Positions 19,414-64,000 of a stretch of DNA of 64,000 bases are shown here, piece by piece. Position 1 is the stretch's first letter. Each line of letters opens with the position of its first letter. The stretch is from an uncultured cyanobacterium (GTDB lineage: Bacteria > Cyanobacteriota > Cyanobacteriia > PCC-9006 > JAAUQQ01). The stretch lies in assembly GCA_963718615.1 (NCBI GenBank), contig OY970368.1:2336001-2400000 (forward strand). Direction: 5' to 3'. The notes under the pieces were generated by a model. That model did no database searches. It saw only the letters and a list, made by a program, of their open reading frames with translations, and was not told the origin of the DNA. Position numbers and translations under genes: made by a program.

Positions 19414-20271
19414 TTATCGCGACTCACTAGACGTTTTCGGAGACAACAGACCCCCGCAGCGAGGCCCGAGGATTGCGGCCTCCGCCAACGCTTCTAAGTT
19501 TACGCTTTTCAGGAGCTGCGTCCAATCGGCAGTAGCGGCTTCATCGCTGGGATCTGCTCGGCGCTGGGCAATGACAGCCGCCAAGGCATCAAACCAAAAG
19601 CCTTGCTGGGCATAGAGTTGAGCCTGTTCTGCCAGATCTAGCTGATTTAGCTGGTCTGGGGAAAGCTCGCTGGGCAGTGCCTGTCGCTCGATCCATCCCG
19701 ACACATAATCCAAATTCGTCGCCAGGGAATTGCCCTCGCTACAGGCATAGTCCATTGCTAAATACCACTGATACCGCTGACCCAGCGCCAATTCGGGAAG
19801 AGACTCTGGGATCTGAACCGTTACTACACCAGTTTGGTTGGGGGCCTCGACGGGCAATTCATAGAGCACTTCTCCCGCATCATTCAGAACCAACAGCGTC
19901 AGGTCCACCGAAGCCACCTCCGCCGCTGCAATGGGAATATAGAATGCAAACAGGGGATGGGCCTGCGTGGTTTGGCCAATAATCTGATTCGCTTGGCCTG
20001 CTTGGGTCGCTTGATATTGGGGGATCAAAGCCGTGAGCGATGCCAATCGATTTTCGCTTTCACAGGTGCGGCTTGCGCCCTCGCCGCGCTTACCGGGGGC
20101 TCCGCGATCGCTCGACAACTTCGGTAACACAAACTGAAGGGCTCCCCGCTGGGTCTTGGCGCTGGCCTCACCCCGAGGCACCATGACACCGCCAGAAACC
20201 AGGAAGAGGGCGAGGGCCAGGGTGGCAAGTTTACGCTTGAGGGTTGGATGGGTCGTTGTCACGTTCGTCAT
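19414..20271 (-). CDS. DUF928 domain exported protein
   Basis: Signal peptide; PGKRGEGASR, HPLFAFYIP, YQWY, GWIER, YAQQGFWFDAL, WTQLLKSVNL. Confidence 0.88.
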   Translation of the reverse strand: MTNVTTTHPTLKRKLATLALALFLVSGGVMVPRGEASAKTQRGALQFVLPKLSSDRGAPGKRGEGASRTCESENRLASLTALIPQYQATQAGQANQIIGQTTQAHPLFAFYIPIAAAEVASVDLTLLVLNDAGEVLYELPVEAPNQTGVVTVQIPESLPELALGQRYQWYLAMDYACSEGNSLATNLDYVSGWIERQALPSELSPDQLNQLDLAEQAQLYAQQGFWFDALAAVIAQRRADPSDEAATADWTQLLKSVNLEALAEAAILGPRCGGLLSPKTSSESR

Positions 20272-49535: not shown

Positions 49536-51110
49536 GTGAATCAACCTCCATCGGTCGTCTCCCAGTCCGCTACCGCCTCGTCCGCTATCGACCCCTCTGT
49601 TCTTTCCCCATCTGTTCTTTCCCCATCCGTGCTCCCCCAGACCGTTGCCGCTGCTGCTAACAAGCCTGAGTCGGCCCGCAACGTTCTCCAGATTTTGCCC
49701 GACAGCTTCGAGATCCCCGAGCATTTCTATCCCCGCGTGCTCAATGCCCAAATTCACCCCATGGTGCAGCATTTTCTAAGCCTGGGGAATGAACGGATTG
49801 CCGAGCGCTATATTCATCTGCACCCGGAGGTGCAGCCCGAGGCGGTCCACCAAGCCTTGGCCCATAGGACCGAACATTTTCTCTGGGGAGGGGCCGACCT
49901 TTTTCCCGCCACGACCGATCAAGGGGTGCGCCGCATCATTGTGATTGAGACCAACTCCTGTCCTTCGGGGCAAAAATCCATGCCCTTTGGCAGCGATGCT
50001 CCGGAGAAAAATGGCTACCGAACGCTGCTTCAAAATACATTTTTACCGCTGATTAAGCGTCGCCGTTTGCCCGCTGGAGACTTGGCTGTTCTCTACGACA
50101 AAAACGAAATGGAAACCTCAGGCTATGCGGCCATGCTGGCGGAGGTCACAGGGGAGCCGGTGTGGTGGGTACCCTGCTTTCAAAATGACTCGGATTTACC
50201 CATCCGCTTTACGGAGGATCGGGTTTTAGAAATTCGGACGCCCGACGGCGACTGGCGACCGATTCGCGCTGCCCTGCGTTATGTGACGCAACGTCCCTGG
50301 AGCCGGATTCCGCCCTTGACGCGCACGGCCATTCTTAATCCAGTTCTAGCCTGCCTAACCGGTGGGCGCAATAAGCTGATGGCGGCCAAGGCGTACGATT
50401 TTTATAATGCTGAAATTCAGTCCACGGGCTTGACCATTCGGACACCGGAGACCATCTGGGATGTCTCGAAAAATGAAGTCCCGTTGTGGGTACATCGCAT
50501 GGGTGGAATTGCCGTGGTCAAAGACCCCTACAGCAATGCAGGGCAGGGCGTTTATACGATTACAAATGAGCAGGAACTGGCGGATTTCATGGCCTTGGAG
50601 TTTCGGTTCGATCGCTTTATCGTCCAAAGTTTGGTGGGCAACTCAGGCTGGAGCTCCCAAACCACTCAGGGAAGATTTTACCATTTGGGCACGCTGCCCA
50701 ACCGCCGCAATGCGATCTATATTGCCGATTTGCGCATGATGGTGGGGGTGGGTGACGCTGGATTTTATCCTGTGGCGATCTATGCCCGTCGTGCCCGTAA
50801 ACCGCTCCAGGCCCACCTCGATGGCACGGTGCCCTCCTGGGATATGCTCGGAACCAATTTGTCGGTTCGCAAGGATAATGGATCGTGGGATAGTGAATCG
50901 GAGCGGTTATTGTTGATGGATAGTCGTGATTTCAATCAGTTGGGCATTGGTTTAGATGACTTAATTGAAGGCTATTTACAAACTGTTTTAGCGGTTACAG
51001 CAATTGATAAGATGGCTCAACAACTGGTTACTCAAAAGGGTAGTTTTCGGCGACGATTGTTTCGATCGCTCAATCCCGATCCAGCATTGGTAGATGATAT
51101 TTATAGCTAG
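49536..51110 (+). CDS. Circularly permuted ATP-grasp-like ligase of unknown substrate
   Basis: GADLF...IETNSCPSG near the N-terminus, then GRNK, VVKDPYSNAGQGV, FIVQ, DLRMMV. Confidence 0.65.
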   Translation: MNQPPSVVSQSATASSAIDPSVLSPSVLSPSVLPQTVAAAANKPESARNVLQILPDSFEIPEHFYPRVLNAQIHPMVQHFLSLGNERIAERYIHLHPEVQPEAVHQALAHRTEHFLWGGADLFPATTDQGVRRIIVIETNSCPSGQKSMPFGSDAPEKNGYRTLLQNTFLPLIKRRRLPAGDLAVLYDKNEMETSGYAAMLAEVTGEPVWWVPCFQNDSDLPIRFTEDRVLEIRTPDGDWRPIRAALRYVTQRPWSRIPPLTRTAILNPVLACLTGGRNKLMAAKAYDFYNAEIQSTGLTIRTPETIWDVSKNEVPLWVHRMGGIAVVKDPYSNAGQGVYTITNEQELADFMALEFRFDRFIVQSLVGNSGWSSQTTQGRFYHLGTLPNRRNAIYIADLRMMVGVGDAGFYPVAIYARRARKPLQAHLDGTVPSWDMLGTNLSVRKDNGSWDSESERLLLMDSRDFNQLGIGLDDLIEGYLQTVLAVTAIDKMAQQLVTQKGSFRRRLFRSLNPDPALVDDIYS

Positions 51111-51121
51111 CTAGACTTCCA

Positions 51122-51173
51122 TGGGATGGCGGCATGGGATGGCGGCTTGGGATGACGGCTTGGGATGGCGGCT
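51122..51173. repeat. 13-bp tandem repeat TGGGATGGCGGCT x4
   Basis: Copies at 51122, 51135, 51148 and 51161, between convergent genes. Confidence 0.9.
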
Positions 51174-51825
51174 ATCTTGTCCAAGCTCGAATGGCTTGGG
51201 GAACCGGCAAGCCAGCCTGTAGCCGCTCATCGGGAATTGGGTCATTTGCCATGCAGTGCAACGGCAAAACTCCCGCCCAAATCGGTAACGCATAATCGGC
51301 TTCATCATCAATGGGGGGGCCAGTACGAACCTTGGCTGAGGCTTCATGGAGCGGTAAGGCTAATACCAGAGTGCCTGTGATTTCTGCTTTAGTCACGGGG
51401 CGCAGATCATCCCAGCGATCGCCCACCACCTGATTGGTAAAGGCTCGCAGGGCTACTTCTTTCTGCTCAAATTCCGTCACTAATTCCGCCTGCCCAAAAA
51501 TCACCACCGAGCGATAGTTCATGGAATGGTGAAACGCGGAACGGGCCAATACCAAACCATCGAGCAAGGTTACGGTGACACAAACTTCAAGGCCCTGCTG
51601 GAGAGATTTGAGCATACGGCTAGCGGGAGAGCCGTGGAGATAGAGGCGATCGCCCACCCGCCCAAAGGCCGTTGGAATGACAAAGGGTTGACCCTCTATG
51701 GCAAACCCAATATGACAGATTAAGGCTTCATCTAAAATGCTGTAAATCAGGTCGCGATCGTAATGACCTCGTTGGGGCAATCGTTTAATTTTTGTCCGTG
51801 AAGTCGGTTCTAGAGAATCCATCAA
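51172..51825 (-). CDS. Pyridoxamine 5'-phosphate oxidase-like flavin-binding protein
   Basis: PFVIPT, YLHGS, DGLVLARSAFHHSMNYRSVV, ASAKVRTGPP, WAGVLP. Confidence 0.92.
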   Translation of the reverse strand: MMDSLEPTSRTKIKRLPQRGHYDRDLIYSILDEALICHIGFAIEGQPFVIPTAFGRVGDRLYLHGSPASRMLKSLQQGLEVCVTVTLLDGLVLARSAFHHSMNYRSVVIFGQAELVTEFEQKEVALRAFTNQVVGDRWDDLRPVTKAEITGTLVLALPLHEASAKVRTGPPIDDEADYALPIWAGVLPLHCMANDPIPDERLQAGLPVPQAIRAWTR

Positions 51826-51884
51826 TCACCTCATTTTAAAACACAGGATCAGGTCGGTACATTGCACCGCAATGTCTCGTCTCG

Positions 51885-51941
51885 TCAAAGGTCCACCGTC
51901 ATGGCATTGCTGGGTTGAAGTCCTAGGGTTTCATAGAGCAA
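51885..51941 (-). pseudogene. C-terminal remnant of a GNAT acetyltransferase
   Basis: LLYETLGLQPSNAMTVDL* resembles the LYxxLGF.P.NEM..L GNAT C-terminus. Confidence 0.45.
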
Positions 51942-51962
51942 TAGAGATACGGTAGGCTGAAA

Positions 51963-52009
51963 ATTGGCTGATCACAAGAGCCAATGTTTGATTTTTAGAC
52001 CAGGCCAAT
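51963..52009. promoter_or_regulatory. Putative MocR/PdxR-type operator
   Basis: ATTGGCT-N9-AGCCAAT inverted repeat plus a downstream direct copy GGCCAAT. Confidence 0.5.
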
Positions 52010-52012
52010 TTT

Positions 52013-52072
52013 ATGGACCTCGCCCTTAGCCTCGATCCTCAAACCTCTAAGGCCCTTTACCCCCTAATCTAG
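52013..52072 (+). pseudogene. N-terminal remnant of a MocR/GntR regulator
   Basis: MDLALSLDPQTSKALYPLI* resembles MocR N-termini; divergent from the PNPOx-like gene. Confidence 0.5.
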
Positions 52073-52172
52073 CCAGCGATCGCCCCCCCTGACAGCCACC
52101 GCTCAATTTCAGAAAATGAGCCCTGGAGAGTATCGTTGCATATCCAAGTTCAACGAAGGGTGAGGGAGCGTT

Positions 52173-53558
52173 ATGGGGTGTTGGGGACAAGAAACACTAG
52201 GGGTTTTGTGCGTCGGCTTGGGAGGGTTAGGTCTGCCGGGGCTGAACGTTGCGATCGCGCAAACGCCACCGCAAACATCACCGCAAACATCACCGCAACG
52301 AATCTCCAAAGTCACTTCAGTTCTCTCCGTCCCCTCGCCAGCCAAGGGCCTTGCCCTCGAAGCCCAGGGTCAAAGGTTGTATGAGCGACGAGAATTTCAG
52401 GCAGCGGCGATCGCCTGGACCCAGGCAGCCCAAACCCACGCGGCCCAGCGTCAAGATGTAGCACAAATTCGCAGTTTGAGTTTAGCCTCGTTGGCCTATC
52501 AACAACAGGGGGATTGGGGGGCGGCTCAGGAGGCGATCGCCACGGCGCTCTCGCTGCTGGCACTTCAGCCCCAGTCTGAGGCGCTATCCAATGTTCAAAC
52601 CCAAGCGGGGCTGATCAACGGAACGCTGCACTTCACCCGAGGAGAATGGGCACAGGCGCGTCAAGCCTGGGGACAAGTGGTTCAGCAGGCTCAATCCTCA
52701 ACAAATCCCACCCCAACAGATCCCACTCCGTTAGTTTTGGGACAACTGAATCTGGCCTTGGTGGACGATGCCCAAGACAAAACCCTAGTCGGTTTAGCGC
52801 GTTTAGAAGATCTCAAAAAGCTGTTGCAAAAACAACCTGAGACACCCCAGACCCAAGTCCTACAAGCTGCCCTCTTCAAAACCGAAGGGGATTTGCTTAG
52901 CCATTTGGGTCGATGGACAGAGGCCCAAGCCCGTTGGGAAGCGGCGTTGGCGATCGCCCAAAGTCCCAATCTCCAAACCCCAAACCTTCAAACCCCAAAT
53001 CTCCAAACCCTCACCGGATCCCTCTGGCTCAGCCTCGGCCAAGCCGCGCGCCAGCAAAATAACCTAAGCCAAGCCCAGCATGCCTATGGGCAAGCCAGTC
53101 AAAACGCTGATCCCACCCTACAAATTTTGACCCAACTGGCTCAGCTTGAGCTGGCCCTTCAGCCAGGAGCAAACGCTGCTGCCCTGCCCCACTGGCCACA
53201 GCTTCAGGCCTCTCTAGCGAAGCAACCCGCTCAGCCGCTCACCCTTTGGAGTCACTTGCGGCTCATTGAACTCCTCCAGCAAGCCAATATTCAGGAACCA
53301 CTGACGACCTTGGCCCACCGAGCCGTGCAGCAAGCCTATGCCCTGGGAGACTCCCAGGCGATCGCCCAATCCCTTCGCAGTCTCGGACAGGTCTATGCCC
53401 TTCAGGGACAGCCGGAACGGGCCGAAAGTTTGTATCAAGAAGCCCAAATGCTGATTCAGCCAGACTTATCCTCCCCTCAGTCTGGGTCTTTGGGGGTGGT
53501 TGAGCTGCGATCGCCCCTTTCCCCTTGGTCCACTGCGATCCTCCCCTCGTCCCCCTAA
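52173..53558 (+). CDS. Exported TPR protein resembling the N-terminal region of CHAT proteins, no CHAT domain
   Basis: Signal peptide ending AIA-Q; QGQRLY...FQAAAIAW..AA, TPRs, LGDSQAIAQSLRSLGQVY; ends without HxxxHG/LSAC. Confidence 0.75.
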   Translation: MGCWGQETLGVLCVGLGGLGLPGLNVAIAQTPPQTSPQTSPQRISKVTSVLSVPSPAKGLALEAQGQRLYERREFQAAAIAWTQAAQTHAAQRQDVAQIRSLSLASLAYQQQGDWGAAQEAIATALSLLALQPQSEALSNVQTQAGLINGTLHFTRGEWAQARQAWGQVVQQAQSSTNPTPTDPTPLVLGQLNLALVDDAQDKTLVGLARLEDLKKLLQKQPETPQTQVLQAALFKTEGDLLSHLGRWTEAQARWEAALAIAQSPNLQTPNLQTPNLQTLTGSLWLSLGQAARQQNNLSQAQHAYGQASQNADPTLQILTQLAQLELALQPGANAAALPHWPQLQASLAKQPAQPLTLWSHLRLIELLQQANIQEPLTTLAHRAVQQAYALGDSQAIAQSLRSLGQVYALQGQPERAESLYQEAQMLIQPDLSSPQSGSLGVVELRSPLSPWSTAILPSSP

Positions 53559-53636
53559 ATTCCTTCTCCAACCTAAATTCCCTTCCCCACGCTGGGCATT
53601 CTAGGGGCCAAGACATCTGGCTTCCTGGGATAATCC

Positions 53637-56279
53637 ATGCTTCCCGCTCGCATTAAACAGTATTGGCATCATTGGCAGCATGATCGCTGGCCCTGGGGGC
53701 GGACTCAGCGGTCCTATTCCCTCAGCCTATTGCGGCAGCAGCCGTTCTGGCTGGGGAGCCTGGTGGCTACTGCAACGCTGTTAGGGATCTCGATGATGGG
53801 AGGACTAGAACAGCTAGAGTTGCAGACCTATGATGTTTGGGTTCGACTACAACCAGACCTCCCCCCTGATCCCCGGCTTCTGGTCGTAGAAGTTACGGAA
53901 GCAGATATTCGTCAGCAAAATCAATGGCCCCTCTCGGATGAGACCTTAGCCCAGGTTCTGGCCAAGCTCCAAACCCATCACCCCTTGAGTATTGGGTTAG
54001 ACCTCTACCGGGATATTGACTATCCCCCCGGAGAAAAACAGCTTAAGGCCCAGCTCCAAAAATCCAATGTCTTTGGAATTGAGTTTTTTGGTGATTTAGA
54101 AACCACCAATGTCCCCGCCCCAGCCACCATGGCACCCGAGCAAATTGGCTTTAATGATCTCTCAATTGATCAAGATGGCGTCGCCCGCCGACAATTGCTG
54201 TTTGTGGCGCTGGGAGACGAAGTTTATTATTCCCTCTCTCTGCGATTGGCCCTCCATGCCCTCGCCCAAGATCCCTCAGCCTTGCATCAACCGTTGTTTG
54301 AGCCCATGCCCTCAGGATTAGTGATTGGGGGCAAACGGTTTCCCGTGATCACGCCCCAAGCCGGAGGCTACCAAAATGCGGATAGTACCGGTTATCAAAC
54401 GCTGCTGCGCTATCGTTCTCAGCGGCCTGCGACCCGCCGGGTTACCCTGAGCGATTTGCTCAGCGATCGGGTCAATCCTGAATGGGTCAAAGATAAAATT
54501 GTGTTGATTGGCGTAACTGCACCGAGTCTTAAAGACCTATTACCAACCCCTTATAGCGCTTCCATTCAAGACAGCAACTACCTCATGCCTGGGGTAGAAG
54601 TCCATGCCCAAATGCTCAGCCAAATTTTGAGCGTAGTAGCCGGTGAGCGATCGCTCCTCCAGTTTTGGCCAGAACCTCTAGAATGGGCTTGGATTTGGCT
54701 CTGGGCCATGCTAGGAGGCTGGGTTGGCTGGCGTTTTAAGCATCCGCTCAGTGTTGGTGCAGCGGGTTTTGCGGGACTATTGTTGTTAGGAGGTGGAACG
54801 GTATTGCTGTTTGCCAGCAGTATTTGGATTCCAGGAACACAACCGGCGATCGCATTTCTCTTTAATCTATTTGTCTTAGTCACCTATCGAGGATTCTATA
54901 CCACCTTTCACGATCCATTGACGGGTTTGCCCAATCAACTGATGTTTTTGCGCTATTTGCGGCAGACACTTAAACGTCAGCAAACCGCCAATTCTTCAAC
55001 CAGTCCTTCAACCTCTGCCATGGGTCCCGCAAAGTTAGCCGTTCTTTTTTTAGATCTGGATCGATTTCAAGTGATCAACGAGCGATTTGGTCATCAAATG
55101 GGAGATCAGGTGTTGTTAACGATTACCCATCGGCTCAAACGGGAAAATCCCAATCAGTATCGATTGGCGCGATTGGGGGGGGATGAATTTGCGCTCTTGC
55201 TGGATGGGATGAGTAGTTCTCAAGAGGCGTGCGATTTTGTGGATCATTTGCAAAAACAGCTCAGCCAACCGATCGCCATCGGCAATGAACAAATTGTGGC
55301 TACAGCGAGCGTTGGCATTGCCCTAGGACAAAGCGATTATACCTACGAACCCGAAGGGCTGCTGCGAGATGCCCATACCGCTACCTATCGCGCCAAGTCC
55401 CTGGGCAAAGCCCGGTACGAAGTCTTTTCGACCGGTATGCGAGCCCAGGTGGTCAATCGGTTTCAAATCGAGACTGACCTTTATAAAGTGCTGGAACGCC
55501 AAGAACTTTTTTTAGAATATCAACCGCTGGTTTGTTTAACGACCGGAACAATTGCGGGGTTTGAAGCCTTGGTTCGCTGGAACCATCCTGAACGGGGTCG
55601 AATCCCCCCTGGTGAGTTTATTCCAGTTGCTGAAGAAACCAATTTTATTATTCCGATGGGGCAATGGATTTTGGCTACAGCCTGCCATCAGGCTCAGGTT
55701 TGGCAACAACAATTTCCCCGATGTAAGTCTCTGATCATGAGTGTCAATCTCTCCCCTCAACAATTCAAACAAGCCAATTTAGTTCATCAGATTCGAGAGA
55801 TTCTACTGGATTCAAAATTAGAAGGTCGCTGTCTCAAACTAGAACTGACCGAGAGTATGGTGATGGGCGATGTCGATGCCGCAATCCAAGTTTTGCTCAA
55901 GCTCAAAGCGCTTCAAATCAAACTGGGCCTTGATGATTTTGGCACAGGCTACTCCTCCCTCAGCTATTTACATCGATTTCCCCTCGATACGCTCAAAATC
56001 GATCGCTCCTTTGTGATGCAAATGGAAGAAGCCAGCGAAAATCGAGAAATCGTCAAAACCATCGTAGCCTTGGGCCACAATCTAGGAATGGATATCATTG
56101 CCGAAGGGGTTGAAACCGAAGTACAAGCCCGAAGTCTACAAGGCTTAAACTGCGAATATGGCCAAGGCTATTTTTTCGCCCATCCACTTTCTGCGGCTGA
56201 CGCAACTGCTGCGCTCGCTCAAGAGCAACTCTGGCCCACAAAACTAGAGCCCACAGACTCGATTGAACTGATTAATTAA
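53637..56279 (+). CDS. CHASE2-GGDEF-EAL c-di-GMP enzyme
   Basis: WPLSDETLA, IGLDLYRD, DQDGVARR, KIVLIG, PGVEVHAQ (CHASE2); 3 TM; RLGGDEF; EALVRW, DDFGTGYSS. Confidence 0.95.
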   Translation: MLPARIKQYWHHWQHDRWPWGRTQRSYSLSLLRQQPFWLGSLVATATLLGISMMGGLEQLELQTYDVWVRLQPDLPPDPRLLVVEVTEADIRQQNQWPLSDETLAQVLAKLQTHHPLSIGLDLYRDIDYPPGEKQLKAQLQKSNVFGIEFFGDLETTNVPAPATMAPEQIGFNDLSIDQDGVARRQLLFVALGDEVYYSLSLRLALHALAQDPSALHQPLFEPMPSGLVIGGKRFPVITPQAGGYQNADSTGYQTLLRYRSQRPATRRVTLSDLLSDRVNPEWVKDKIVLIGVTAPSLKDLLPTPYSASIQDSNYLMPGVEVHAQMLSQILSVVAGERSLLQFWPEPLEWAWIWLWAMLGGWVGWRFKHPLSVGAAGFAGLLLLGGGTVLLFASSIWIPGTQPAIAFLFNLFVLVTYRGFYTTFHDPLTGLPNQLMFLRYLRQTLKRQQTANSSTSPSTSAMGPAKLAVLFLDLDRFQVINERFGHQMGDQVLLTITHRLKRENPNQYRLARLGGDEFALLLDGMSSSQEACDFVDHLQKQLSQPIAIGNEQIVATASVGIALGQSDYTYEPEGLLRDAHTATYRAKSLGKARYEVFSTGMRAQVVNRFQIETDLYKVLERQELFLEYQPLVCLTTGTIAGFEALVRWNHPERGRIPPGEFIPVAEETNFIIPMGQWILATACHQAQVWQQQFPRCKSLIMSVNLSPQQFKQANLVHQIREILLDSKLEGRCLKLELTESMVMGDVDAAIQVLLKLKALQIKLGLDDFGTGYSSLSYLHRFPLDTLKIDRSFVMQMEEASENREIVKTIVALGHNLGMDIIAEGVETEVQARSLQGLNCEYGQGYFFAHPLSAADATAALAQEQLWPTKLEPTDSIELIN

Positions 56280-56333
56280 CCCATTAACCCATTCGCTAAC
56301 TAACGCTAACTAACGCATTAACCGATTCGCTAA

Positions 56334-57176
56334 TTAGTAAGACTGAGAGGTTTTAGATGGATGTATCGTTGCCTGTTTTAGGAGCTCACCTTGGGCCAGG
56401 GGCTGACTCTGGAGTTCACTTAAATCTAGGCTTTGGAGGAGTGCTGCCCAAGCCTGTTGAATCTGACCGGAGGGAACCGTAGAGCTGGAGTCCTGTAATT
56501 CTGTGTAAAGTGTCTGAGCCGCTGCTTGCCATAGCCCAAGCTCCTGGTATTGTTGGGCTCGCTGTAGCGGGTTCCCTGTTGTCAGCGGAGCATCGATTCG
56601 CCGTAGGGTGCCCCACTCGTAGCGATCGCTCGACCGATCCACCGCACTGGAAATCACAGAAAGCTGCCAGGTATAGTCCTCATTCATCCGCAAAGACTGA
56701 CCGCTGAGCGGCGAATTTAGTTCAAGCTGGAAGATCCCAGACCGATCCGGTACTTGAAAAAACTTCTCGTAGACTAACTGCCCTGCCGAATCCTCAACCA
56801 ATAATTCAATTGTCCGAGAAATGGCTGCTTCTGGCGATGCCTGTCCCAGATAAACCAACAGACTGGGCCGCTCCGAGAGCACCAGCCAAGGGGTCTGGGT
56901 AGGCGCTAGAACCACCAGTTCGCCAGGGCCTGAATCACTGCGGGTTGCAGCAGCACTTCGACGTCCCGGTAAGCCTTGTCGAAGGGTGGCGGCTTGCAAC
57001 ACATTGCCCCGCGTAGTCGATCTGGTCTGGGAAGAACTGGCTTGGGAAACAGGTGTTGGTGTCGCTGAACGATGGGTTTCGGCCTGAGCTATGCCCGCTT
57101 GTAGCAGACTTAGGCATAATCCCAGACTAGAACAGAGCAAAATGCGGTTCAAAGTGCGGTGGAGGAAAGGATTCAT
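56334..57176 (-). CDS. DUF928 domain exported protein
   Basis: Signal peptide (AQA); PGRRSAAATR, ERPSLLVY, YTW, YQELGLWQ, WAALLQSLDL. Confidence 0.85.
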   Translation of the reverse strand: MNPFLHRTLNRILLCSSLGLCLSLLQAGIAQAETHRSATPTPVSQASSSQTRSTTRGNVLQAATLRQGLPGRRSAAATRSDSGPGELVVLAPTQTPWLVLSERPSLLVYLGQASPEAAISRTIELLVEDSAGQLVYEKFFQVPDRSGIFQLELNSPLSGQSLRMNEDYTWQLSVISSAVDRSSDRYEWGTLRRIDAPLTTGNPLQRAQQYQELGLWQAAAQTLYTELQDSSSTVPSGQIQQAWAALLQSLDLSELQSQPLAQGELLKQATIHPSKTSQSY

Positions 57177-57380
57177 GGCAACTCTAGGGTGGACCAGAAC
57201 TTATAGTTCATTGTGATTTCTCAGCTCTGGCAAAAAAACCGCAGATTTATCCGGTGGCGATCGCCCGATTTGTGAAGCCTCACCACTGTCTTCCGTGGAA
57301 TCGCACAAGCGGTCTAGGCAAAAGCAACTATCTTTACCCTTTTTGGGGACAGCAACTAGGTTTGGATTCAAGCCATTCAA

Positions 57381-57470
57381 ACCATGAGCTGTAAAACCGT
57401 GAGCTGTAAAACCGTGAGCTGTAAAACCGTGAGCTGTAAAACCATGATCTGCAAAACGCTTATCTGTAAA
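57381..57470. repeat. 15-bp tandem array ACCGTGAGCTGTAAA x6
   Basis: Copies at 57381, 57396, 57411, 57426, 57441 and 57456; the last two are degenerate. Confidence 0.92.
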
Positions 57471-57595
57471 ACTGCTTCCCAGAACGGGAATTCTATCTAT
57501 TAAGGTATCAGGGGAAATTTCAGGGGAATTTCAGGATTAATCGAGAATGTTCTACCAGGGCGGCTCCCTTTGGAGGTCAAACCCTCATTGCTCTG

Positions 57596-60259
57596 ATGTA
57601 TAACGGCAAGCGCGATCCCATGGATTTTTTCATCCTCAAACGTCCTCGGCTCTCAGCCTGGATCCATCAAGACTGGATCCGTCAAGACAGGCTCAAGCAA
57701 GATAAGCTTCAGCGGTGGATGACGGTCGGTGGTGTGGTGTTGAGCTTCGGCACTATCACCCTTATCACAGCGACAGGGGCGATCGCCCAACCCATTACTG
57801 ATGGTTCCTTAGGCACTTCTGTCATTTCGATTCCTGCGGGAAGCACGGGTTGTCCATCGGGATGTTTTGAGGTGAAGGATGGAACCGCGAATGGCAATAA
57901 CCTGTTTCATAGCTTTAGTCAGTTTGACCTACCGAGTAATACCCGGCTCTTTTTTAACCATGATCCCAGTGTTCAGCGGATTATTAGCCGAGTGACGGGA
58001 GGCAGACAAAGTCTTGTTGACGGACTCGTTGAGACAAATCCAGGAGTTAGCTTATTTTTGATTAACCCCCAGGGGTTTGTATTGGGTCCCAATGCACAAA
58101 TTAATGTTGCGGATACGTTTGTGGCTGCCTCTGCGGATAGCATTCATCGGTCTAACAGTTCATTTTCAACGAGTTTAAGCGAACCGCTTCTGCTCTTTAA
58201 TGGACAGCCAGACTCTGTCTTGTTTGGGAATAATCCAGGCCCAATCCAAGTGCAAGGAAGCCTTTTTAGCCAACCACTTAACCCCAATCCAGGTTATCGT
58301 CTGGCCTTGCTAGGCAGTCCGGTTGAGATTTCGGATCGAACCCTTTTCATCCCTGAAGATCAACTAGTGTTGGGTGGATTTAAACAGGGAGGGCAGGCAT
58401 TTTTATCCGACTCCCTCTTTTCTTTCAGTTCCTCTCCACCGCAAGACGTTGCGGTTGTCACGCTGGATAATGCCAATCTTATAGCTCAGGATCCAGTGAT
58501 TAATGGCGAAGTTCAAATTCGTAGCAGTGCTTTAAGTTTGAGCCGTGGTTCTAGCATTGTTACAAGGGCCAATCAGCAAGAAAACAAAGATGGCAATATT
58601 CGACTGACTTTAGATGCCGGTACGTTAGATCTGTCGGGGTACAGCCAAATTAGTGCTGAAGCGATTTCGGGAGGGAGCGCAGGGAATATTTGGGTCACTG
58701 GGCCTGTACGTTCAATCAATTTACAACTCAGCTCTATTTCAACCATAACTGAAGGAGAAGGTGGAAATATTACACTGGAGGCTGAGGGGGGCGATATTAC
58801 CTTGGCTTTACTGAGCTCGATTACGAGTCGGGCGATCGCCCCATCTCCAAACCCCTCCCCAAACCCAATCGTAGCCAATATTAATCTCACGGGTGAAAAT
58901 CTGGCGATTTGGGGAGGCAGTAAAATTACAACGGTCAATCAAAGTAACCACAGCAGTGGCAACGTCGGTTATGTTAATCTCAATTTCAGCGATAAGGTTG
59001 AGATTTTAGGCTATAGTCAGATTTCGACTTCCGTCCTCAAGGATGTAGAAAATGCAGCGGCTGGGGACATCACGATTGCAGGCAGCGATTTAGAATTAGG
59101 CCCTTTGATTTTCGGAAACGGCGAGATTAAAACGACGACCAATGTACCGGGAGGGGATATTCAGCTCAATTTTTCTCAAAAAATTAGGCTCCAGAATTCC
59201 AGTTTAATTTCAGCAACGGTTGCCGACGGAACCCTTGGCAATGCGTCGGGCAATATCAGCTTCAACACTCCCGAGCTGGAATTGCGCTCAGGCAGTAGCA
59301 TCGAAACCCAAAGCCCTGGAAGCGGCGGAAATCTTGCCCTGAATTTACCCAGCAACGGTAGGCTAAAACTCAAAAATAGCAGTATTCAAATCAGCACTGG
59401 TTCGCCTGAATTTCAGTTTTTATCCCTCACTCCCGATCAGCTCGCGGTACAAACAGCGGATGATGGAGACATTTCCCTCTGGGTTCCTGAGTCTGTTTCT
59501 GCTCAACTCTTTTCCGCAGTTAGCAATTCGGCCTTTGCTCCAATCTTTAAACTAGTGAGTCAGCCGGTTCAAGGCAATTTCCGCAGTGAAATCAGTCTGA
59601 GCATTATCCCCCCGGAGCAGCTCGCCCTACCCAATGTTGACATCCCCCCTCCAACCCCTTCTGCAACCACAACCCCGCCGCCCCCCTCTACCAGCCCTAT
59701 TTTGTTGCTGCCTTGGCTCAATCCGCTGTTCTCCAACAATGCCTATTTAGGAGGGGATTCTGTGCGATCGCCCACCTCCCGATCCTCAACCGCAACCTCC
59801 CATGGCATCGCTCAAATCGCCTCGGGTATCAGTCCTACAAACAACTCCAGCACGGAAAACTCGGCACTCCCCTCCGTGCAACTGACCTTGGCCAACCCTA
59901 GGCGATGGCAACCCTTGATCCTGCGTCAGTGCCAGTCCTCGCAACCGGTACAGGAGGCCGGAGCAGCAACCTTTCGGATGAGCGGACGAGGAGGCGTACC
60001 GCCGGGGCCGGGGGGATTATTGAGCAGCGGTGCGTCCCTGTCTTTGGAATCCTTAGCGTTAGCGGATCTGGGGCTCTCTTCCCAGGGATCTATTGCGATC
60101 GCAAATCCCAATTCAGCAGTCTTTCCCCAGATCGTTCAATCCTCCTCTGGGCTGGAAGCCCAATCCTGGCGGGTCAATCGACGGGGAGAGGTACAGCTTT
60201 TGGGCGATCGCGCCCCCCGTTCAGACGTTTGGAACAGCAATTGCAATCCTGCTTCCTAA
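57596..60259 (+). CDS. TpsA-type exoprotein with filamentous haemagglutinin N-terminal domain
   Basis: Signal peptide (AIA-Q); NLFHSFSQF, IISRVTGG, FLINPQG; beta-helical GxI repeats; C-terminal SGRGGVP and EAQSWRVN..GEVQL motifs. Start may be 57620. Confidence 0.9.
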   Translation: MYNGKRDPMDFFILKRPRLSAWIHQDWIRQDRLKQDKLQRWMTVGGVVLSFGTITLITATGAIAQPITDGSLGTSVISIPAGSTGCPSGCFEVKDGTANGNNLFHSFSQFDLPSNTRLFFNHDPSVQRIISRVTGGRQSLVDGLVETNPGVSLFLINPQGFVLGPNAQINVADTFVAASADSIHRSNSSFSTSLSEPLLLFNGQPDSVLFGNNPGPIQVQGSLFSQPLNPNPGYRLALLGSPVEISDRTLFIPEDQLVLGGFKQGGQAFLSDSLFSFSSSPPQDVAVVTLDNANLIAQDPVINGEVQIRSSALSLSRGSSIVTRANQQENKDGNIRLTLDAGTLDLSGYSQISAEAISGGSAGNIWVTGPVRSINLQLSSISTITEGEGGNITLEAEGGDITLALLSSITSRAIAPSPNPSPNPIVANINLTGENLAIWGGSKITTVNQSNHSSGNVGYVNLNFSDKVEILGYSQISTSVLKDVENAAAGDITIAGSDLELGPLIFGNGEIKTTTNVPGGDIQLNFSQKIRLQNSSLISATVADGTLGNASGNISFNTPELELRSGSSIETQSPGSGGNLALNLPSNGRLKLKNSSIQISTGSPEFQFLSLTPDQLAVQTADDGDISLWVPESVSAQLFSAVSNSAFAPIFKLVSQPVQGNFRSEISLSIIPPEQLALPNVDIPPPTPSATTTPPPPSTSPILLLPWLNPLFSNNAYLGGDSVRSPTSRSSTATSHGIAQIASGISPTNNSSTENSALPSVQLTLANPRRWQPLILRQCQSSQPVQEAGAATFRMSGRGGVPPGPGGLLSSGASLSLESLALADLGLSSQGSIAIANPNSAVFPQIVQSSSGLEAQSWRVNRRGEVQLLGDRAPRSDVWNSNCNPAS

Positions 60260-60292
60260 ACTCACCGCAACTCACCGCAACTCACCGCAACT
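60259..60292. repeat. 10-bp tandem repeat AACTCACCGC x3
   Basis: Directly visible between tpsA and the CHAT gene. Confidence 0.85.
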
Positions 60293-60307
60293 TAGACCCT
60301 GCCGCTC

Positions 60308-63013
60308 ATGTCCTCACCGATTCGCCATCGCCGTCGTTACCTTGTGCTTGCTCTTGTGGCTTGGCTGGCCAGTTGGTTCGTCGCGGGTTGGGGCAGTTTT
60401 GTGAATGCAACTCCGATCCCGCCCTGGGCGGTGAGTCTCTCCCAGGCCGCAGACTCGGCTCAGACCCTGGAGCAGCGAGGACGGGTGCGATACCAAGCGG
60501 GAGATTTTGCGGCGGCGGCCCAAGCTTGGGGAGAGGCGGCTGAGGACTATGGCCGCTCCGGCGATCGCCCCGCCCAAACCCGAGTCCTGAGCAATTTGGC
60601 CCTAGCCTATCTGGCCCTGAACCAAGGATTGCAGGCAGAAACCGCTATCACCCAAGCGCTCCAAGGGGTTGATCCCCAAACTGAACCGGCCCTACAGGCC
60701 CAGGTTTGGAGTACTCAAGCACGGCTACTGCTGGCCCAAGGCAACGGAGAAACGGCCCTAGAGCGTTGGCAGGCGGCAGTGCAAGCCTATGGGCAAGCGG
60801 GTGATGATTCGGGGCAAATCAGGGCACAACTGGGGCAAGCCGAAGCGTTGGAACAGCTCGGGTTTTACGAGCGTGCCCGTCTCCAATTGGAAAGACTACT
60901 GGAAAGACAACTTCAGACCTCGCCCAACCTCTCGCCCAACCTTCAGGTTTGGGCAATGCTGCGGCTAGGGGCGCTCCATCGAGTCAGTGGCAGCTTGTCC
61001 CGCTCCGAACAGTTGTTTCAGCAAGCTTTGAGCCTCACTCAGCAATCTCAATTGCCAGATCTAGCACCTGTCATTCAACTGGAACTGGGGAAAACGGCCC
61101 AAGCCCAACAACAGTGGGAGAAGGCGATCGCCTCCTATGACCAAGCCCTAGACTTAATCACCCATGATTTAGCCCTGCAACTAGAGGGAGAACGTCTCAG
61201 GATCGAAGTCTTTCTGGCGCAACAAAACTGGGAGGCTGCCCAACAAGCTACGTCTCGCCTAACCGCTCTTTTGGAGTCATCTGTTTCCTTAGATCCGTTA
61301 GATCCGTCCGCCGCGATCGCTCAGTCTCTCCCCCTGAGGCAACAGTTAGACCTCGCCCAGACCTTACTGCATCTACAGAAGCAAGCAATCCGGCAGAAAG
61401 CAATCCAGCGGCAAACTCAGTTTGAAACGCTGCTCAAAATGCTGCTCGAAGCGGCCTTGGGTCAAGCGCGAAGTTTGGGCGATCGCCGCCACCAGAGTTA
61501 TGCCCTGGGGATGCTGGGTGAGCTGGCAGAACAGCAACAGCGCTGGGATCTCGCCCAAGCCCATAGTCAGACAGCGCTACAATTGGCTCAGCAACTTAAT
61601 GCGTCAGAACTCAGCTATCGCTGGGAGTGGCAGCTCGGACGGATTCTACAACACCGGGGACAGGCGGGAGATGCAGCCCTGGCGCTGCGCTTTTCCCGAG
61701 ATGCGGTGCAAACGCTCAATGGCATCCAGTCGGATATTCTCAAACTTAATCCCGATGTCCAGTTCTCCTTTGAGACGGATGTTGCCCCCGTTTATCAACA
61801 ATACGTGGATTTGCAACTGCGTGCGGTTCGAGCGATCGCTGACAAGATTGCCGATCCTGATCCTGGGCGCGATCGCCAAGCTGCTTTGCAGATCGTCCAG
61901 CAAACCCTAGATCAGCGTCGCTTTAGCGAATTTAGTACCTTTTTGGGCGAGCCCTGTAGCCTCAGCGCAATACCCTCTGGCCCAGTCTCAACGGGCCAAG
62001 CCCCTCAGCAACCTGATCCAAGGGCCGCTCTGATCACCCCGATTCCCCTGGCCGATCGCGTTGAAATTTTGCTGCAATTACCCGACGGTAAGCTCCAGCA
62101 ATTTACCACCCCAATCGCCGCTGATGAGTTCCACCGTTTGCTCCAAGACTTCCGCTATTACCTCGTCGTCCGCAGTCGCAAAAACTATTTGCCCCTGGCC
62201 CAACGCCTCTACGATCTGCTCATTCGCCCCTTGGAATCTCAGTTGGCAGACCATCAGATTGCAACCCTTGTGTTTTCCCTAGACAGCACGCTCAACACCA
62301 TCCCCATGGCGGCGCTTCATGATGGCCAGCGGTTTTTGTTAGAAACCTATGGAGTTGCGCTCACGCCTCGATTAGAGCGGATGCAGCCCAGCCCCTTGAG
62401 CGATCGCCAGTTCCAAACCCTAGCGGTGGGCCTTTCAGAAGCACGAGAAGGCTTTTCTCCCCTGGATTCGGTGACGCAGGAAATTGAGGCGATCGCCCAC
62501 CACACCCATCGAAGTACCGTGTTGTTGGATCAGCAATTTACTCAGGCGGCCCTGCGCGATCGCATGCACGAACAGTCCTTTCCCGTGGTGCATATCGCTA
62601 CCCATGGTCAGTTTAGCTCTAATCCAGACGATACGTTCCTGCTGGCCTGGGATCAAACTATCTCGGTTCAGGCCCTGGATGAGATGGTGCGATCGCGCAG
62701 TCTCAATACCTCAGCGCCCATTGAGCTCCTAGTGCTCAGCGCCTGCAAAACCGCTGTAGGCGATGACCGTGCTGCCCTGGGGATGGCAGGGGTAGCGATT
62801 CGGGCGGGGGCGCGCAGTACCCTGGCAACGCTGTGGTCGATTGACGACAGCGCAACGGCGCAACTGATGGATACGTTCTATGCGGCCCTGGGGCAGTCCG
62901 GCATTTCGCGGGCCGAAGCCCTGCGCCAAGCCCAGCTCAAGCTGTTGGCCAATCCGGCCTACCAACATCCGATTTTTTGGTCTCCCTATATCCTGCTGGG
63001 CAATTGGCTCTAG
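60308..63013 (+). CDS. Exported TPR-CHAT (caspase-like cysteine protease) protein
   Basis: Signal peptide; TPRs; IPMAALHDG, HIATHG (His), VLSACKTA (Cys), ATLWSIDD, HPIFWSPYILLGNWL. Confidence 0.93.
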   Translation: MSSPIRHRRRYLVLALVAWLASWFVAGWGSFVNATPIPPWAVSLSQAADSAQTLEQRGRVRYQAGDFAAAAQAWGEAAEDYGRSGDRPAQTRVLSNLALAYLALNQGLQAETAITQALQGVDPQTEPALQAQVWSTQARLLLAQGNGETALERWQAAVQAYGQAGDDSGQIRAQLGQAEALEQLGFYERARLQLERLLERQLQTSPNLSPNLQVWAMLRLGALHRVSGSLSRSEQLFQQALSLTQQSQLPDLAPVIQLELGKTAQAQQQWEKAIASYDQALDLITHDLALQLEGERLRIEVFLAQQNWEAAQQATSRLTALLESSVSLDPLDPSAAIAQSLPLRQQLDLAQTLLHLQKQAIRQKAIQRQTQFETLLKMLLEAALGQARSLGDRRHQSYALGMLGELAEQQQRWDLAQAHSQTALQLAQQLNASELSYRWEWQLGRILQHRGQAGDAALALRFSRDAVQTLNGIQSDILKLNPDVQFSFETDVAPVYQQYVDLQLRAVRAIADKIADPDPGRDRQAALQIVQQTLDQRRFSEFSTFLGEPCSLSAIPSGPVSTGQAPQQPDPRAALITPIPLADRVEILLQLPDGKLQQFTTPIAADEFHRLLQDFRYYLVVRSRKNYLPLAQRLYDLLIRPLESQLADHQIATLVFSLDSTLNTIPMAALHDGQRFLLETYGVALTPRLERMQPSPLSDRQFQTLAVGLSEAREGFSPLDSVTQEIEAIAHHTHRSTVLLDQQFTQAALRDRMHEQSFPVVHIATHGQFSSNPDDTFLLAWDQTISVQALDEMVRSRSLNTSAPIELLVLSACKTAVGDDRAALGMAGVAIRAGARSTLATLWSIDDSATAQLMDTFYAALGQSGISRAEALRQAQLKLLANPAYQHPIFWSPYILLGNWL

Positions 63014-63117
63014 CTAGAGGTTTTGCCCTGATTGGCGGACACAACTCCTAAAACCCAAGCTACGCATCAAAGCGTTATAACAGGAGAGGCGTTGTGGGCT
63101 ATGCCGAGGAGATTGCC

Positions 63118-64000
63118 ATGGAGATTGACCTAGAGAACGGCCTGGTTCTGCACAACCGCTATGAGATTCTGCATCTGCTGGGCCAGGGAGGAAACGGGAC
63201 GACCTATGCTGCGCGCGATCGCCAAACCCAGCAAACCGTGGCCCTCAAAGCCCTCTCCCTCCGTGGCCTCAAGGATTGGAAACAGCTCGACCTGTTTGAG
63301 CGAGAAGCTAAGGTCTTAAAAAATCTCAATCATCCCGGCATTCCTCGCTATGTCGATGGGTTTCAAATCCAAACCGACCAAGATCAAGTTTTCTATCTCG
63401 TTCAAGAACTGGCCGAAGGTCAATCTTTAGCGGTCTTAGTGGAGTCCGGCTGGCATGCAGACGAAGGGGAAGTGCAGCGAATCGCCTTGGAACTATTGGA
63501 AATTTTGGTGTATTTGCATAGTTTAAAGCCCCCCATTGTTCACCGCGATCTCAAACCCCAAAATGTGATTCGTCGTGGAGATGGTCGGATTTTTCTCGTC
63601 GATTTTGGTGCGGTTCAAGCGGTGTATCAAGACGCCTTGCGATCGAGCAGCACGGTTGTAGGCACCTATGGCTATATGGCTCCCGAACAGTTTCGCGGCG
63701 CTGCCAGTCCCGCCTCGGATCTCTACGCCTTAGGGGCAACGCTGCTGTTTTTGCTCACCCACCAATCTCCTGCTAAATTGCCCCAGGAGCGGCTAAAAAT
63801 TCAGTTTCGTCAAGTCGTCGATCTATCGGATGAATTTGCGGATTGGCTAGAGGGGATATTGGAGCCTGTGGACGAAGACCGAATGGGTTCAGCGAAGCTG
63901 GCGATCGCTTACTTACTCAACCCGTTACTCAATCCCTTGCCCAACTCCCAGTCCAGTCTCACCTCATCACCCCCACAGCGCTCCAACCTCCTTCAGCCGA
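63118..64000 (+). CDS. Hanks-type Ser/Thr protein kinase, runs off the window end (absent from the ORF track)
   Basis: Translated by hand: LGQGGNGTTY, VALK, LFEREAKVL, HRDLKPQN, DFG, GTYGYMAPEQ, SDLYALG. Alternative GTG start at 63094. Confidence 0.92.
   Translation, partial: MEIDLENGLVLHNRYEILHLLGQGGNGTTYAARDRQTQQTVALKALSLRGLKDWKQLDLFEREAKVLKNLNHPGIPRYVDGFQIQTDQDQVFYLVQELAEGQSLAVLVESGWHADEGEVQRIALELLEILVYLHSLKPPIVHRDLKPQNVIRRGDGRIFLVDFGAVQAVYQDALRSSSTVVGTYGYMAPEQFRGAASPASDLYALGATLLFLLTHQSPAKLPQERLKIQFRQVVDLSDEFADWLEGILEPVDEDRMGSAKLAIAYLLNPLLNPLPNSQSSLTSSPPQRSNLLQP

Follow-up and report, generated by a model that had tools for sequence, protein, structure and literature searches.

Introduction

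CHASE2, first described in 2003, is a widespread sensor domain that is still an orphan. Here we describe a CHASE2 receptor gene and its neighbours in a stretch of 64,000 nucleotides (nt) from the genome of an uncultured cyanobacterium (contig OY970368.1, positions 2,336,001 to 2,400,000); this whole stretch is called the window. At the end of the window, from 52173 to 64000, the gene of a CHASE2-GGDEF-EAL receptor lies next to genes for a DUF928 protein, a TpsA-type exoprotein of two-partner secretion (TPS) and a TPR-CHAT protease. This locus is probably a rearranged member of a set of envelope signalling modules, conserved and present in many copies, which work outside-in and are made of a DUF928-CHASE2 core and an input arm.

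The LapD/LapG/LapA system of Pseudomonas combines a GGDEF-EAL inner-membrane protein bearing a periplasmic domain with a periplasmic cysteine protease and a giant adhesin, and it signals inside-out. However, the periplasmic domain of LapD is not CHASE2, LapG is not a CHAT protease and LapA is exported by type I, not two-partner, secretion. Pfam found no LapG-type protease or type I secreted adhesin family among the six proteins of the window locus, and the evidence at the module favours signalling outside-in. In the TpsA proteins FhaB (its prodomain) and CdiA, a C-terminal part is kept in the periplasm before release. An N-terminal TPS domain, a long repeat-rich body and a special C-terminal part are common to those proteins and the window TpsA, and it is at the C-terminal part that TPS-CHAT fusions place the protease. 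The window locus differs from theirs in having no TpsB gene, and neither a GRGG[LIV]P motif like that of the window TpsA nor a CHAT partner is known from FhaB or CdiA. A TPR arm and a CHAT protease are also joined in Csx29 of the type III-E CRISPR 'Craspase', which is signal-activated, cytoplasmic and RNA-guided, whereas the window TPR-CHAT protein has a signal-like N-terminus and the locus has no CRISPR genes.

Dedicated partners of CHASE2 receptors have been described. In magnetotactic bacteria, the conserved gene behind mtxA encodes a protein that combines CHASE2 with an adenylate cyclase domain; the sections on MtxA in PMC4439547 (structure PDB 4Z29) present it as a signal-peptide protein composed of an Ig-like and a TPR-like domain and report no phenotype of an mtxA mutant under standard conditions. 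The Burkholderiales 'BiofilmReg' system, as presented in the relevant part of PMC5192318, likewise has a CHASE2 receptor (a histidine kinase) encoded in a conserved operon with a dedicated periplasmic protein, and is tied to biofilm formation; the partner there is a LysM-FecR protein, and this presentation includes no TPS or CHAT arm. Another link between proteases of the caspase fold and CHASE2, as it exists here, is known from the EACC2-caspase systems, where caspase-CHASE2 fusions are encoded with ECF-type (extracytoplasmic function) sigma factor and DUF1822 genes (Kaur, Iyer, Burroughs and Aravind 2021, PMC8195603). The caspase domain of the EACC2 systems is described there as cytoplasmic and as part of a fusion with the receptor, whereas the window has a separate exported TPR-CHAT protein and a GGDEF-EAL output, and Pfam found no caspase-receptor fusion, sigma factor or DUF1822 at the window locus. 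The passages on EACC2 in that text mention neither DUF928 nor TPS, and its supplementary tables may hold more. A metacaspase-CHASE2 fusion was listed by Jiang et al. 2010 (PMC2853523).

The ligands of CHASE2 were still stated to be unknown, with a call for a search for partners, in the passages on this domain in PMC5192318 (2016) and PMC10581220 (2023); the latter, on Dgc2, considers such a search warranted and describes CHASE2 diguanylate cyclases as governing motility and biofilm formation in filamentous cyanobacteria. A construct of Sinorhizobium meliloti CyaD1 without CHASE2 gave constitutive cyclic AMP (cAMP) production, according to a figure legend in PMC5498481, which fits CHASE2 as an input domain. 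In a full-text literature search, DUF928 was mentioned only in PMC5587647, where a cluster of CHASE2, DUF928 and WD40 in Nostoc punctiforme is noted in passing; supplementary neighbourhood tables (PMC5587647 Table S4, PMC10581220 Table S3) may hold more. The same search returned no paper joining 'CHAT domain' with 'hemagglutinin', or CHAT with two-partner secretion in cyanobacteria, and none describing the module, parts of which may be listed in the supplements of PMC8195603, PMC5587647 and PMC10581220. The families that make up the module are known, but no description of their wiring was found in the literature searched.

Results

Gene content of the locus

Six open reading frames (ORFs) occupy 52173-64000. 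The ORF list and Pfam returned the genes, domains and coordinates that a sequence-only reading of the window had proposed, as follows (E values are from Pfam unless another source is named; aa, amino acids):
52173 to 53558, plus strand: TPR-only protein, 461 aa; TPR families only (TPR_2, E 3.8e-13)
53637 to 56279, plus strand: CHASE2-GGDEF-EAL receptor, 880 aa; CHASE2 3.8e-72, GGDEF 7.4e-35, EAL 7.7e-73
56334 to 57176, minus strand: DUF928 protein, 280 aa; E 2.2e-28, 99.7 bits against a cut-off of 26
57177 to 57595: divergent intergenic region between the DUF928 gene and tpsA, 419 bp
57596 to 60259, plus strand: TpsA-type exoprotein, 887 aa; TPS (PF05860) 8.4e-35, adhes_NPXG (TIGR01901) 5e-18
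60308 to 63013, plus strand: TPR-CHAT protease, exported or anchored, 901 aa; TPR_12 5.4e-17, CHAT (PF12770) 1.1e-61
63094 to 64000, plus strand, continuing past the window end: Hanks-type Ser/Thr kinase; Pkinase 8.9e-42, 472 aa for the full gene

The TPR-only and CHASE2 genes are 78 bp apart, the convergent CHASE2 and DUF928 genes 54 bp and the divergent DUF928 and tpsA genes 419 bp; tpsA is followed after 48 bp by the CHAT gene, and this after 80 bp by the kinase gene. Each of the first five proteins has one N-terminal hydrophobic segment, in agreement with the proposal that five of the genes encode signal peptides or extracytoplasmic parts; hydrophobic segments and signal-like N-termini are Kyte-Doolittle heuristics throughout. 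Rfam gave no match to a riboswitch or other known RNA at E <= 1 across 51000-64000, and counts in promoter and terminator scans, including the DUF928/tpsA intergenic region, were not above those in shuffled sequences. NCBIfam holds no curated family naming the TPR protein, the DUF928 protein, the CHAT domain or the module.

Linkage of DUF928 to CHASE2, CHAT and TPS

The genome (6.10 Mb, one contig) holds 16 DUF928 loci, with 19 CHASE2, 50 CHAT, 24 TPS and 3 ShlB matches. DUF928 lay within 10 kb of CHASE2 at 11 of the 16 loci (2000 random draws gave a mean of 0.97 and at most 6), of CHAT at 12 (random mean 2.4) and of TPS at 9 (random mean 1.2). Sixteen 20-kb pieces were annotated with Pfam; locus labels (L001 and so on) denote a piece of about 20 kb around one DUF928, or receptor, match. 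The following layouts were found:
L001: CHASE2-cyclase with DUF928
L003: TPR-CHAT, DUF928, CHASE2-GGDEF
L005, L007 and L012: caspase-like-CHASE2 fusion, then DUF928
L006: sigma factor, DUF1822, caspase-CHASE2 and two DUF928 genes, facing TPS, ShlB and CHAT
L008: two TPS genes, TPR-CHAT, DUF928
L009: response regulator, CHASE2 kinase, DUF928
L011: TPS, TPR-CHAT and DUF928 with overlapping stops and starts
L013: TPS-CHAT fusion, DUF928, CHASE2-GGDEF, TPS-TPR-CHAT
L002 and L004: solitary DUF928 genes

Start and stop codons overlap at L005 as well as at L011. At the paralogous loci L006, L010 and L012, a sigma factor or DUF1822 gene precedes a caspase-CHASE2 fusion and then DUF928, as in part of the EACC2-caspase arrangement.

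Of 151 genomes sampled across the phylum, 50 contained DUF928, with 1-20 matches each; these 50 all belong to the class of the window's genome. All 50 also have CHASE2 and a strong CHAT match, which is consistent with the linkage and not decisive; CHAT also occurs in 8 of the 11 DUF928-negative genomes of the class. Gene neighbourhoods were compared at 80 loci (each about 20 kb) in 40 further cyanobacterial genomes; the loci were drawn from the 150 best-scoring of 288 DUF928 matches and not at random. A CHASE2 gene was adjacent to DUF928 (gap <= 600 bp) at 55 of the 80 loci, on the same strand at 52. CHAT was found within the locus at 32 (adjacent at 18), TPS at 26 and ShlB at 10, and CHASE2 occurred together with a CHAT or TPS gene at 28. 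The co-directional order TPS, TPR-CHAT, DUF928, CHASE2 recurs at L070, L053, L058, L076 and L092, and at L095 with ShlB in front. The window has a rearranged version of this order, with DUF928 inverted between the receptor gene and tpsA.

CHASE2 was confirmed by Pfam on all 55 adjacent genes, in a re-check that covered these genes and a few loci. The other domains of the 55 proteins were:
class III cyclase: 20
N-terminal caspase-like domain: 17
hybrid histidine kinase: 9
Ser/Thr kinase: 3
triple TIR: 2
GGDEF-EAL: 1
AAA_35: 1
none or truncated: 2

Because the sensor domain alone is common to these eight kinds of cytoplasmic end, DUF928 appears to be tied to CHASE2 itself. At the hybrid-kinase loci a CHAT gene was present in nine of nine (within 20 kb), directly beside DUF928 in most. 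The sequence-only reading had stated that CHAT, DUF928, CHASE2 and TPS genes co-occur and had named neighbourhood statistics as the check. The co-occurrence proved to be far beyond chance in this genome, in cyanobacteria and in Proteobacteria, and the linkage to CHASE2 is conserved (55/80 loci). The linkage is wider than that reading assumed. It had missed TpsB as part of the full module elsewhere, the frequency of DUF928-CHASE2 pairs with no CHAT or TPS gene nearby, and that cyclic di-GMP (c-di-GMP) is one of many outputs.

Unusual N-terminal cytoplasmic domains are carried by some DUF928-adjacent CHASE2 proteins (L065:6344-9511, L093:6200-9388, L073:6797-9568 and L087:6808-9351), namely three tandem TIR domains, an AAA_35 ATPase, or a trypsin-like peptidase plus cyclase. 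This suggests defence-type or cell-suicide outputs.

Occurrence in Proteobacteria

The same gene set is found in a second phylum. A locus of a Gallionellaceae metagenome-assembled genome (MAG), L106, which turned up by chance among matches to the window receptor, encodes in one direction DUF928, TPS, ShlB with POTRA_2, TPR-CHAT and a CHASE2-cyclase. Of 401 genomes sampled from the class of this MAG, 13 contained DUF928, and in 12 of these the match exceeded the Pfam cut-off. Twelve further loci from 10 such genomes had CHASE2 beside DUF928 in 7 cases, TPR-CHAT in 6, TPS in 3 and ShlB in 3; Pfam confirmed L158, L162 and L164. With L106 included, CHASE2 adjoined DUF928 at 8 and TPR-CHAT at 7 of 13 proteobacterial loci.

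Co-diversification of the module genes

Distances between DUF928 proteins correlated with those between the adjacent CHASE2 domains (Mantel r 0.78 for 55 pairs; maximum of 2000 permutations 0.12), and in 41 of the 55 pairs the nearest DUF928 relative had a receptor of the same output class. At the 31 loci with all three families, Mantel r was 0.86 for DUF928-CHASE2, 0.71 for DUF928-CHAT and 0.67 for CHAT-CHASE2. The copy numbers of DUF928 and CHASE2 in 61 genomes of the class, in which a CHASE2 count of 16 stands for at least 16, gave a Spearman coefficient of 0.92, which fell to 0.85 once genome size was removed. Related genomes are not independent in these tests. The correlations show that the genes were inherited and duplicated as units, and DUF928 behaves as the hub, as it is the family tied most tightly to CHASE2 and also to CHAT.

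The CHASE2-GGDEF-EAL receptor and its closest relatives

The receptor consists of a first transmembrane segment (about residues 37-57), a predicted periplasmic CHASE2 region (about 58-345), three hydrophobic segments (about 346-415), a GGDEF motif at 514 and an EAL motif at 643. The Pfam match to CHASE2 (PF05226) covers residues 46-361, with hydrophobic segments on both sides. As had been proposed, the GGDEF and EAL domains are intact, with all motifs present (RLGGDEF, EALVR, DDFGTG, KIDRSF and EGVE); a motif check found no RxxD at the usual I-site distance. Because the motifs of the GGDEF-EAL pair are intact, the output of this receptor is presumably c-di-GMP turnover. An AlphaFold2 (AF2) model of the CHASE2 part reached a mean predicted local distance difference test score (pLDDT) of 89.7; a structure search with it gave no clear match among solved folds, and no solved structure was detectable by sequence.

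Three relatives of the receptor were found, two (full-length) by protein search and the third in the DUF928 set:
L097 (Pseudanabaenaceae MAG, 56% identity): convergent DUF928, as in the window, and no other module gene
L104 (Crocosphaera, 48% identity): DUF928, receptor, then TPS and ShlB
L052 (from the DUF928 set): DUF928, receptor, then TPR-CHAT

DUF928 is adjacent to the receptor gene at all four CHASE2-GGDEF-EAL loci, the window included, and a TPS, CHAT or ShlB arm gene is present at three of the four.

A gene for a WecG/TagA-type glycosyltransferase was also observed just upstream of DUF928 at L104 (7968-8717) and L052 (8108-8854), in different genomes. The two loci may thus retain traces of a common ancestral neighbourhood with a link to envelope polysaccharide.

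The DUF928 protein and its likeness to MtxA

The window DUF928 protein has a signal-like segment, a disordered linker with an invariant Arg (Arg79 of the precursor), a predicted Ig-like beta-sandwich and a three-helix TPR-like end. Its AF2 model, built from a 68-sequence alignment, had a pLDDT of 80 and a predicted template modelling score (pTM) of 0.74, with 50 disordered N-terminal residues, a beta-sandwich at 55-161, three helices at 171-217 and a final strand. The family shares the motif [FY]xPP...GxP...GG[AGS][ST]RGxC, which lies in the disordered region (pLDDT < 50). The Arg of this motif is present in all 68 sequences, the window copy included, and the Cys in 61 of 68. A second conserved Cys stands within the sandwich (YRWxLxxxC). 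Both Cys are absent from the window protein and from the L010 copy, and this joint loss in the window copy and one paralogue suggests that the two form a disulfide in the rest of the family.

The predicted Ig-like plus TPR-like fold, in a protein whose gene adjoins that of a CHASE2 receptor, is the combination known from MtxA. A search of the ESM atlas gave a sub-threshold lead (score 0.76) from DUF928 to a cluster with the MtxA families. One proteobacterial genome has a Pfam-confirmed MtxA gene (DUF7354; MtxA_IG-like 1.6e-28; MtxA_C 6.5e-20) at L170 (C87:103000-121000), in an operon of a 1359-aa TPR-CHAT protein, the MtxA-family protein and a CHASE2-cyclase. MtxA there occupies exactly the slot of DUF928 between TPR-CHAT and CHASE2-cyclase, and the same genome also holds a weak DUF928-CHASE2 pair (L168). 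The two proteins differ in that MtxA has an additional N-terminal DUF7354 domain where DUF928 has the disordered Arg motif, and the window protein matched only DUF928 in Pfam at E <= 0.01, with no MtxA_IG-like or MtxA_C. Since sequence comparison finds no homology, DUF928 and MtxA are either very remote relatives or analogues with the same job.

TpsA and the TPR-CHAT protease

The TPS secretion domain of the window TpsA covers residues 91-294. No TpsB (ShlB/FhaC, POTRA_2) gene was found in the window between 46000 and 64000; other copies of the module do have an adjacent TpsB gene (L006, L015, L038, L104 and L106). Because the genome has 24 TPS genes and only 3 ShlB-type TpsB genes, most TpsA proteins, that of the window included, must share a transporter encoded elsewhere.

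A motif, SGRGGVP, is found at residue 797 of the window TpsA (nt 59984-60001), 91 aa from the C-terminus. The form Fx[VIL][ST]GRGG[LIV]PxxP is shared among the unfused TpsA proteins encoded at these loci, where its median distance from the C-terminus is 90 aa. It occurred in 22 of 49 TPS ORFs (at L008, L011, L012, L019, L038, L106 and others, that of L106 being the Gallionellaceae TpsA), in none of nine TPS-CHAT fusions, and, among 585 other long ORFs, in a single one; in the window's own genome it was present in 10 of 20 unfused and none of four fused TPS proteins. We know of no description of this motif. The last 300 aa of the window TpsA found nothing by BLAST in the other loci, with which only the short motif is shared. 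A neighbouring unfused CHAT gene accompanied 17 of 22 TPS ORFs with the motif and 6 of 11 without it, which gives no clear link.

In the TPR-CHAT protein the CHAT domain spans residues 629-899. The His/Cys dyad that had been called intact is present in the motifs HIATHG and LSACKT, and His766 and Cys813 were assigned by motif position as the putative catalytic pair. Eight full-length TPR-CHAT paralogues in the genome share 30-38% identity and all have an N-terminal hydrophobic segment. Such a segment was found in 36 of 42 unfused CHAT ORFs near DUF928, and the His and Cys motifs in 40. A sequence search of solved structures with the TPR-CHAT protein gave TPR proteins only and no CHAT relative. 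TPS and CHAT are joined in one ORF at L007, L013, L015 and L016 of this genome, which ties the protease to the secreted filament. The protease most likely acts in the periplasm, where DUF928 and the CHASE2 domain lie, because the fusions put it at the C-terminal end of TpsA, the end kept in the periplasm in FhaB and CdiA, and the separate TPR-CHAT proteins have signal-like N-termini (36/42).

Discussion

The module is almost certainly a real functional unit. We infer the contacts, the cleavages and the direction of signalling in it from the conserved adjacency, order and co-diversification of its genes, the TPS-CHAT fusions, and the fold likeness and shared slot of DUF928 and MtxA. Its invariant core would be the CHASE2 receptor in the inner membrane and DUF928 as the receptor's own periplasmic partner. 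It is likely that DUF928 works with the CHASE2 domain in the periplasm, where it would bind this domain or present a ligand to it and would thereby set the activity of the cytoplasmic part, here GGDEF-EAL. Signalling can be expected to run outside-in, with CHASE2 as the input, because the cytoplasmic enzymatic domains are diverse and CyaD1 without CHASE2 is constitutive. A frequent, optional input arm would feed DUF928, consisting of a TPR-CHAT cysteine protease, which is exported, and a TpsA filament that leaves through a TpsB pore whose gene lies elsewhere in this genome. In the periplasm this protease would act on DUF928, on the C-terminal region of TpsA, or on both, and through this step the receptor would be coupled to contact, secretion or shear as states of the surface filament. 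That CHAT acts proteolytically on DUF928 or TpsA is a more tentative part of the scheme, and we are inclined to doubt it.

Several observations weigh against this interpretation. DUF928 stands alone at 12 of 80 cyanobacterial, 5 of 12 proteobacterial (some on short contigs) and 2 of 16 own-genome loci, and the neighbour genes of the 80 loci were called with hidden Markov models from this genome's paralogues. CHASE2 is present in 145 of the 151 genomes of the phylum and DUF928 in only 50, so that CHASE2 has no general need of DUF928. For most DUF928-CHASE2 pairs of the cyclase type, neither CHAT nor TPS lies within 10 kb, and the protease arm is therefore optional. Any genes that duplicate together would give Mantel and copy-number correlations of this kind, which are no proof of binding. 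No fused form of DUF928 was found at E <= 1e-5 among proteins of 549-2000 aa, which is weak evidence. No homology with MtxA was detected in sequence, as a DUF928 profile searched against the PDB missed 4z29 and hhalign gave a probability of 0.07. At the window itself, DUF928 is divergent, lacks both Cys and scores 99.7 bits against up to 161.6 for its paralogues, and the locus encodes no TpsB.

If these gene families were simply expanded envelope genes piling up in variable genome islands, with no functional coupling, their high copy numbers in this genome, the rearranged layout at the window and the lack of conservation of the TPR-only and kinase genes as neighbours would be expected. We regard this as highly improbable, as same-strand adjacency with a gap of at most 600 bp was found at 52 of 80 loci from 40 genomes, the same gene set recurs in another phylum, starts and stops overlap at L011 and L005, and fusion proteins exist. 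A second possibility is contact-dependent competition, in which TpsA-CHAT, fused or split as at the window, would be exported as an effector like CdiA, with DUF928 as the periplasmic immunity protein against it and CHASE2 as a mere frequent neighbour. The order TpsB, TpsA...CHAT, DUF928 at L006, L011 and L038 does mirror cdiB-cdiA-cdiI, the families are multi-copy with highly diverged DUF928 paralogues (about 22% identity), and DUF928 co-diversifies with CHAT (r = 0.71). However, DUF928 co-diversifies more tightly with CHASE2 (0.86), which adjoins it at 55 of 80 loci while CHAT is present in only 32, and cyclase-type pairs mostly occur with neither CHAT nor TPS close by. In addition, the fold relative MtxA pairs with CHASE2 as well, and the CHAT domain is well conserved, not hypervariable, so that this explanation has a slim chance in our judgement. 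The counts weigh most strongly against chance clustering and against DUF928 as an immunity protein only.

The cast of the locus, a giant surface exoprotein, a periplasmic cysteine protease and a GGDEF-EAL inner-membrane protein with a periplasmic domain, is also of the kind needed for inside-out control as in the Lap system. The receptor would then read c-di-GMP and, through CHASE2 and DUF928 as adaptor, hold or free CHAT, which would trim the TpsA adhesin, possibly at GRGG[LIV]P some 90 aa from its C-terminus. The GGDEF and EAL motifs are both intact here, however, whereas those of LapD are degenerate, and none of the six proteins belongs to a LapG-type family. The DUF928-CHASE2 pair is also joined to cyclases, histidine and Ser/Thr kinases, caspase-like and TIR domains, which are outputs and not c-di-GMP receptors, and the constitutive activity of CyaD1 without CHASE2 (PMC5498481) again points to input through this domain. 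Control in this direction is quite improbable.

Within the outside-in scheme, DUF928 might be a bait or pro-ligand read by the protease. Many clan CD peptidases cut after Arg, and the motifs of DUF928 and TpsA both place an Arg among glycines. An exported CHAT protease would cut DUF928 at the invariant Arg, and CHASE2 would sense either the cleavage product or the disappearance of whole DUF928. The protease might belong to the cell itself and be kept in the periplasm by the TpsA filament, or be delivered by a neighbour's TpsA-CHAT. Cleavage by CHAT at either Arg motif is pure inference, and we consider this bait mechanism unlikely. If it were true, the module would be an extracytoplasmic proteolytic cascade by which bacteria sense contact, kin or danger, with read-outs from second messengers (here c-di-GMP) to suicide effectors (caspase-like and TIR fusions), and the long-sought input of CHASE2 receptors would be named.

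As DUF928 tracks the sensor through eight cytoplasmic ends and two phyla, it is a testable candidate for what CHASE2 reads, and the protease and filament arm suggests a route for passing a cell-surface event inward. The module may bear on surface behaviour, since CHASE2 diguanylate cyclases act in motility and biofilm formation in filamentous cyanobacteria. Three uncharacterised families, namely DUF928, MtxA and the exported TPR-CHAT proteins, are also placed in a functional context by it.

Neighbouring genes

The sequence-only reading had counted the TPR-only gene and the Ser/Thr kinase among the members of the system. Both are present beside CHASE2-GGDEF-EAL at only one of the four related loci, the window, and are missing at L097, L104 and L052; for this reason, on synteny, they were rejected as parts of the module. 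The TPR-only gene is a locus-specific neighbour. Its product had been called a CHAT-less TPR paralogue. The absence of CHAT held, as Pfam finds TPR families only, and the paralogy is weakly supported by co-linear BLASTP matches: the protein matched the TPR arm of the neighbouring CHAT protein with E 0.002 and 0.011 (the latter with 37% identity over 114 co-linear residues), and paralogous TPR-CHAT proteins with E 6e-5 to 6e-4. It is possibly a relic or a paralogue of the TPR arm of these proteins. Its N-terminus has a hydrophobic segment without a basic n-region. The kinase, which probably lies outside the module, has in its full 472 aa a kinase domain followed by two hydrophobic segments and appears to be membrane-anchored.

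A second DUF928 gene is present in the window at 19474-20082 on the minus strand (about 19.4-20.3 kb, corresponding to L002:9615-10472; Pfam E 8.4e-47). It has no CHASE2, CHAT or TPS gene within 10 kb and is solitary between a 2OG-Fe(II) oxygenase gene and DUF1611 and enolase-like genes. Directly after the kinase of the window, a second complete module follows (L007, contig positions 2396000-2415900), with a TPS-CHAT fusion of 1326 aa, DUF928 and a caspase-like-CHASE2 fusion. Behind the latter lie two ORFs with calpain-like (Peptidase_C2) matches, which resemble one split gene.

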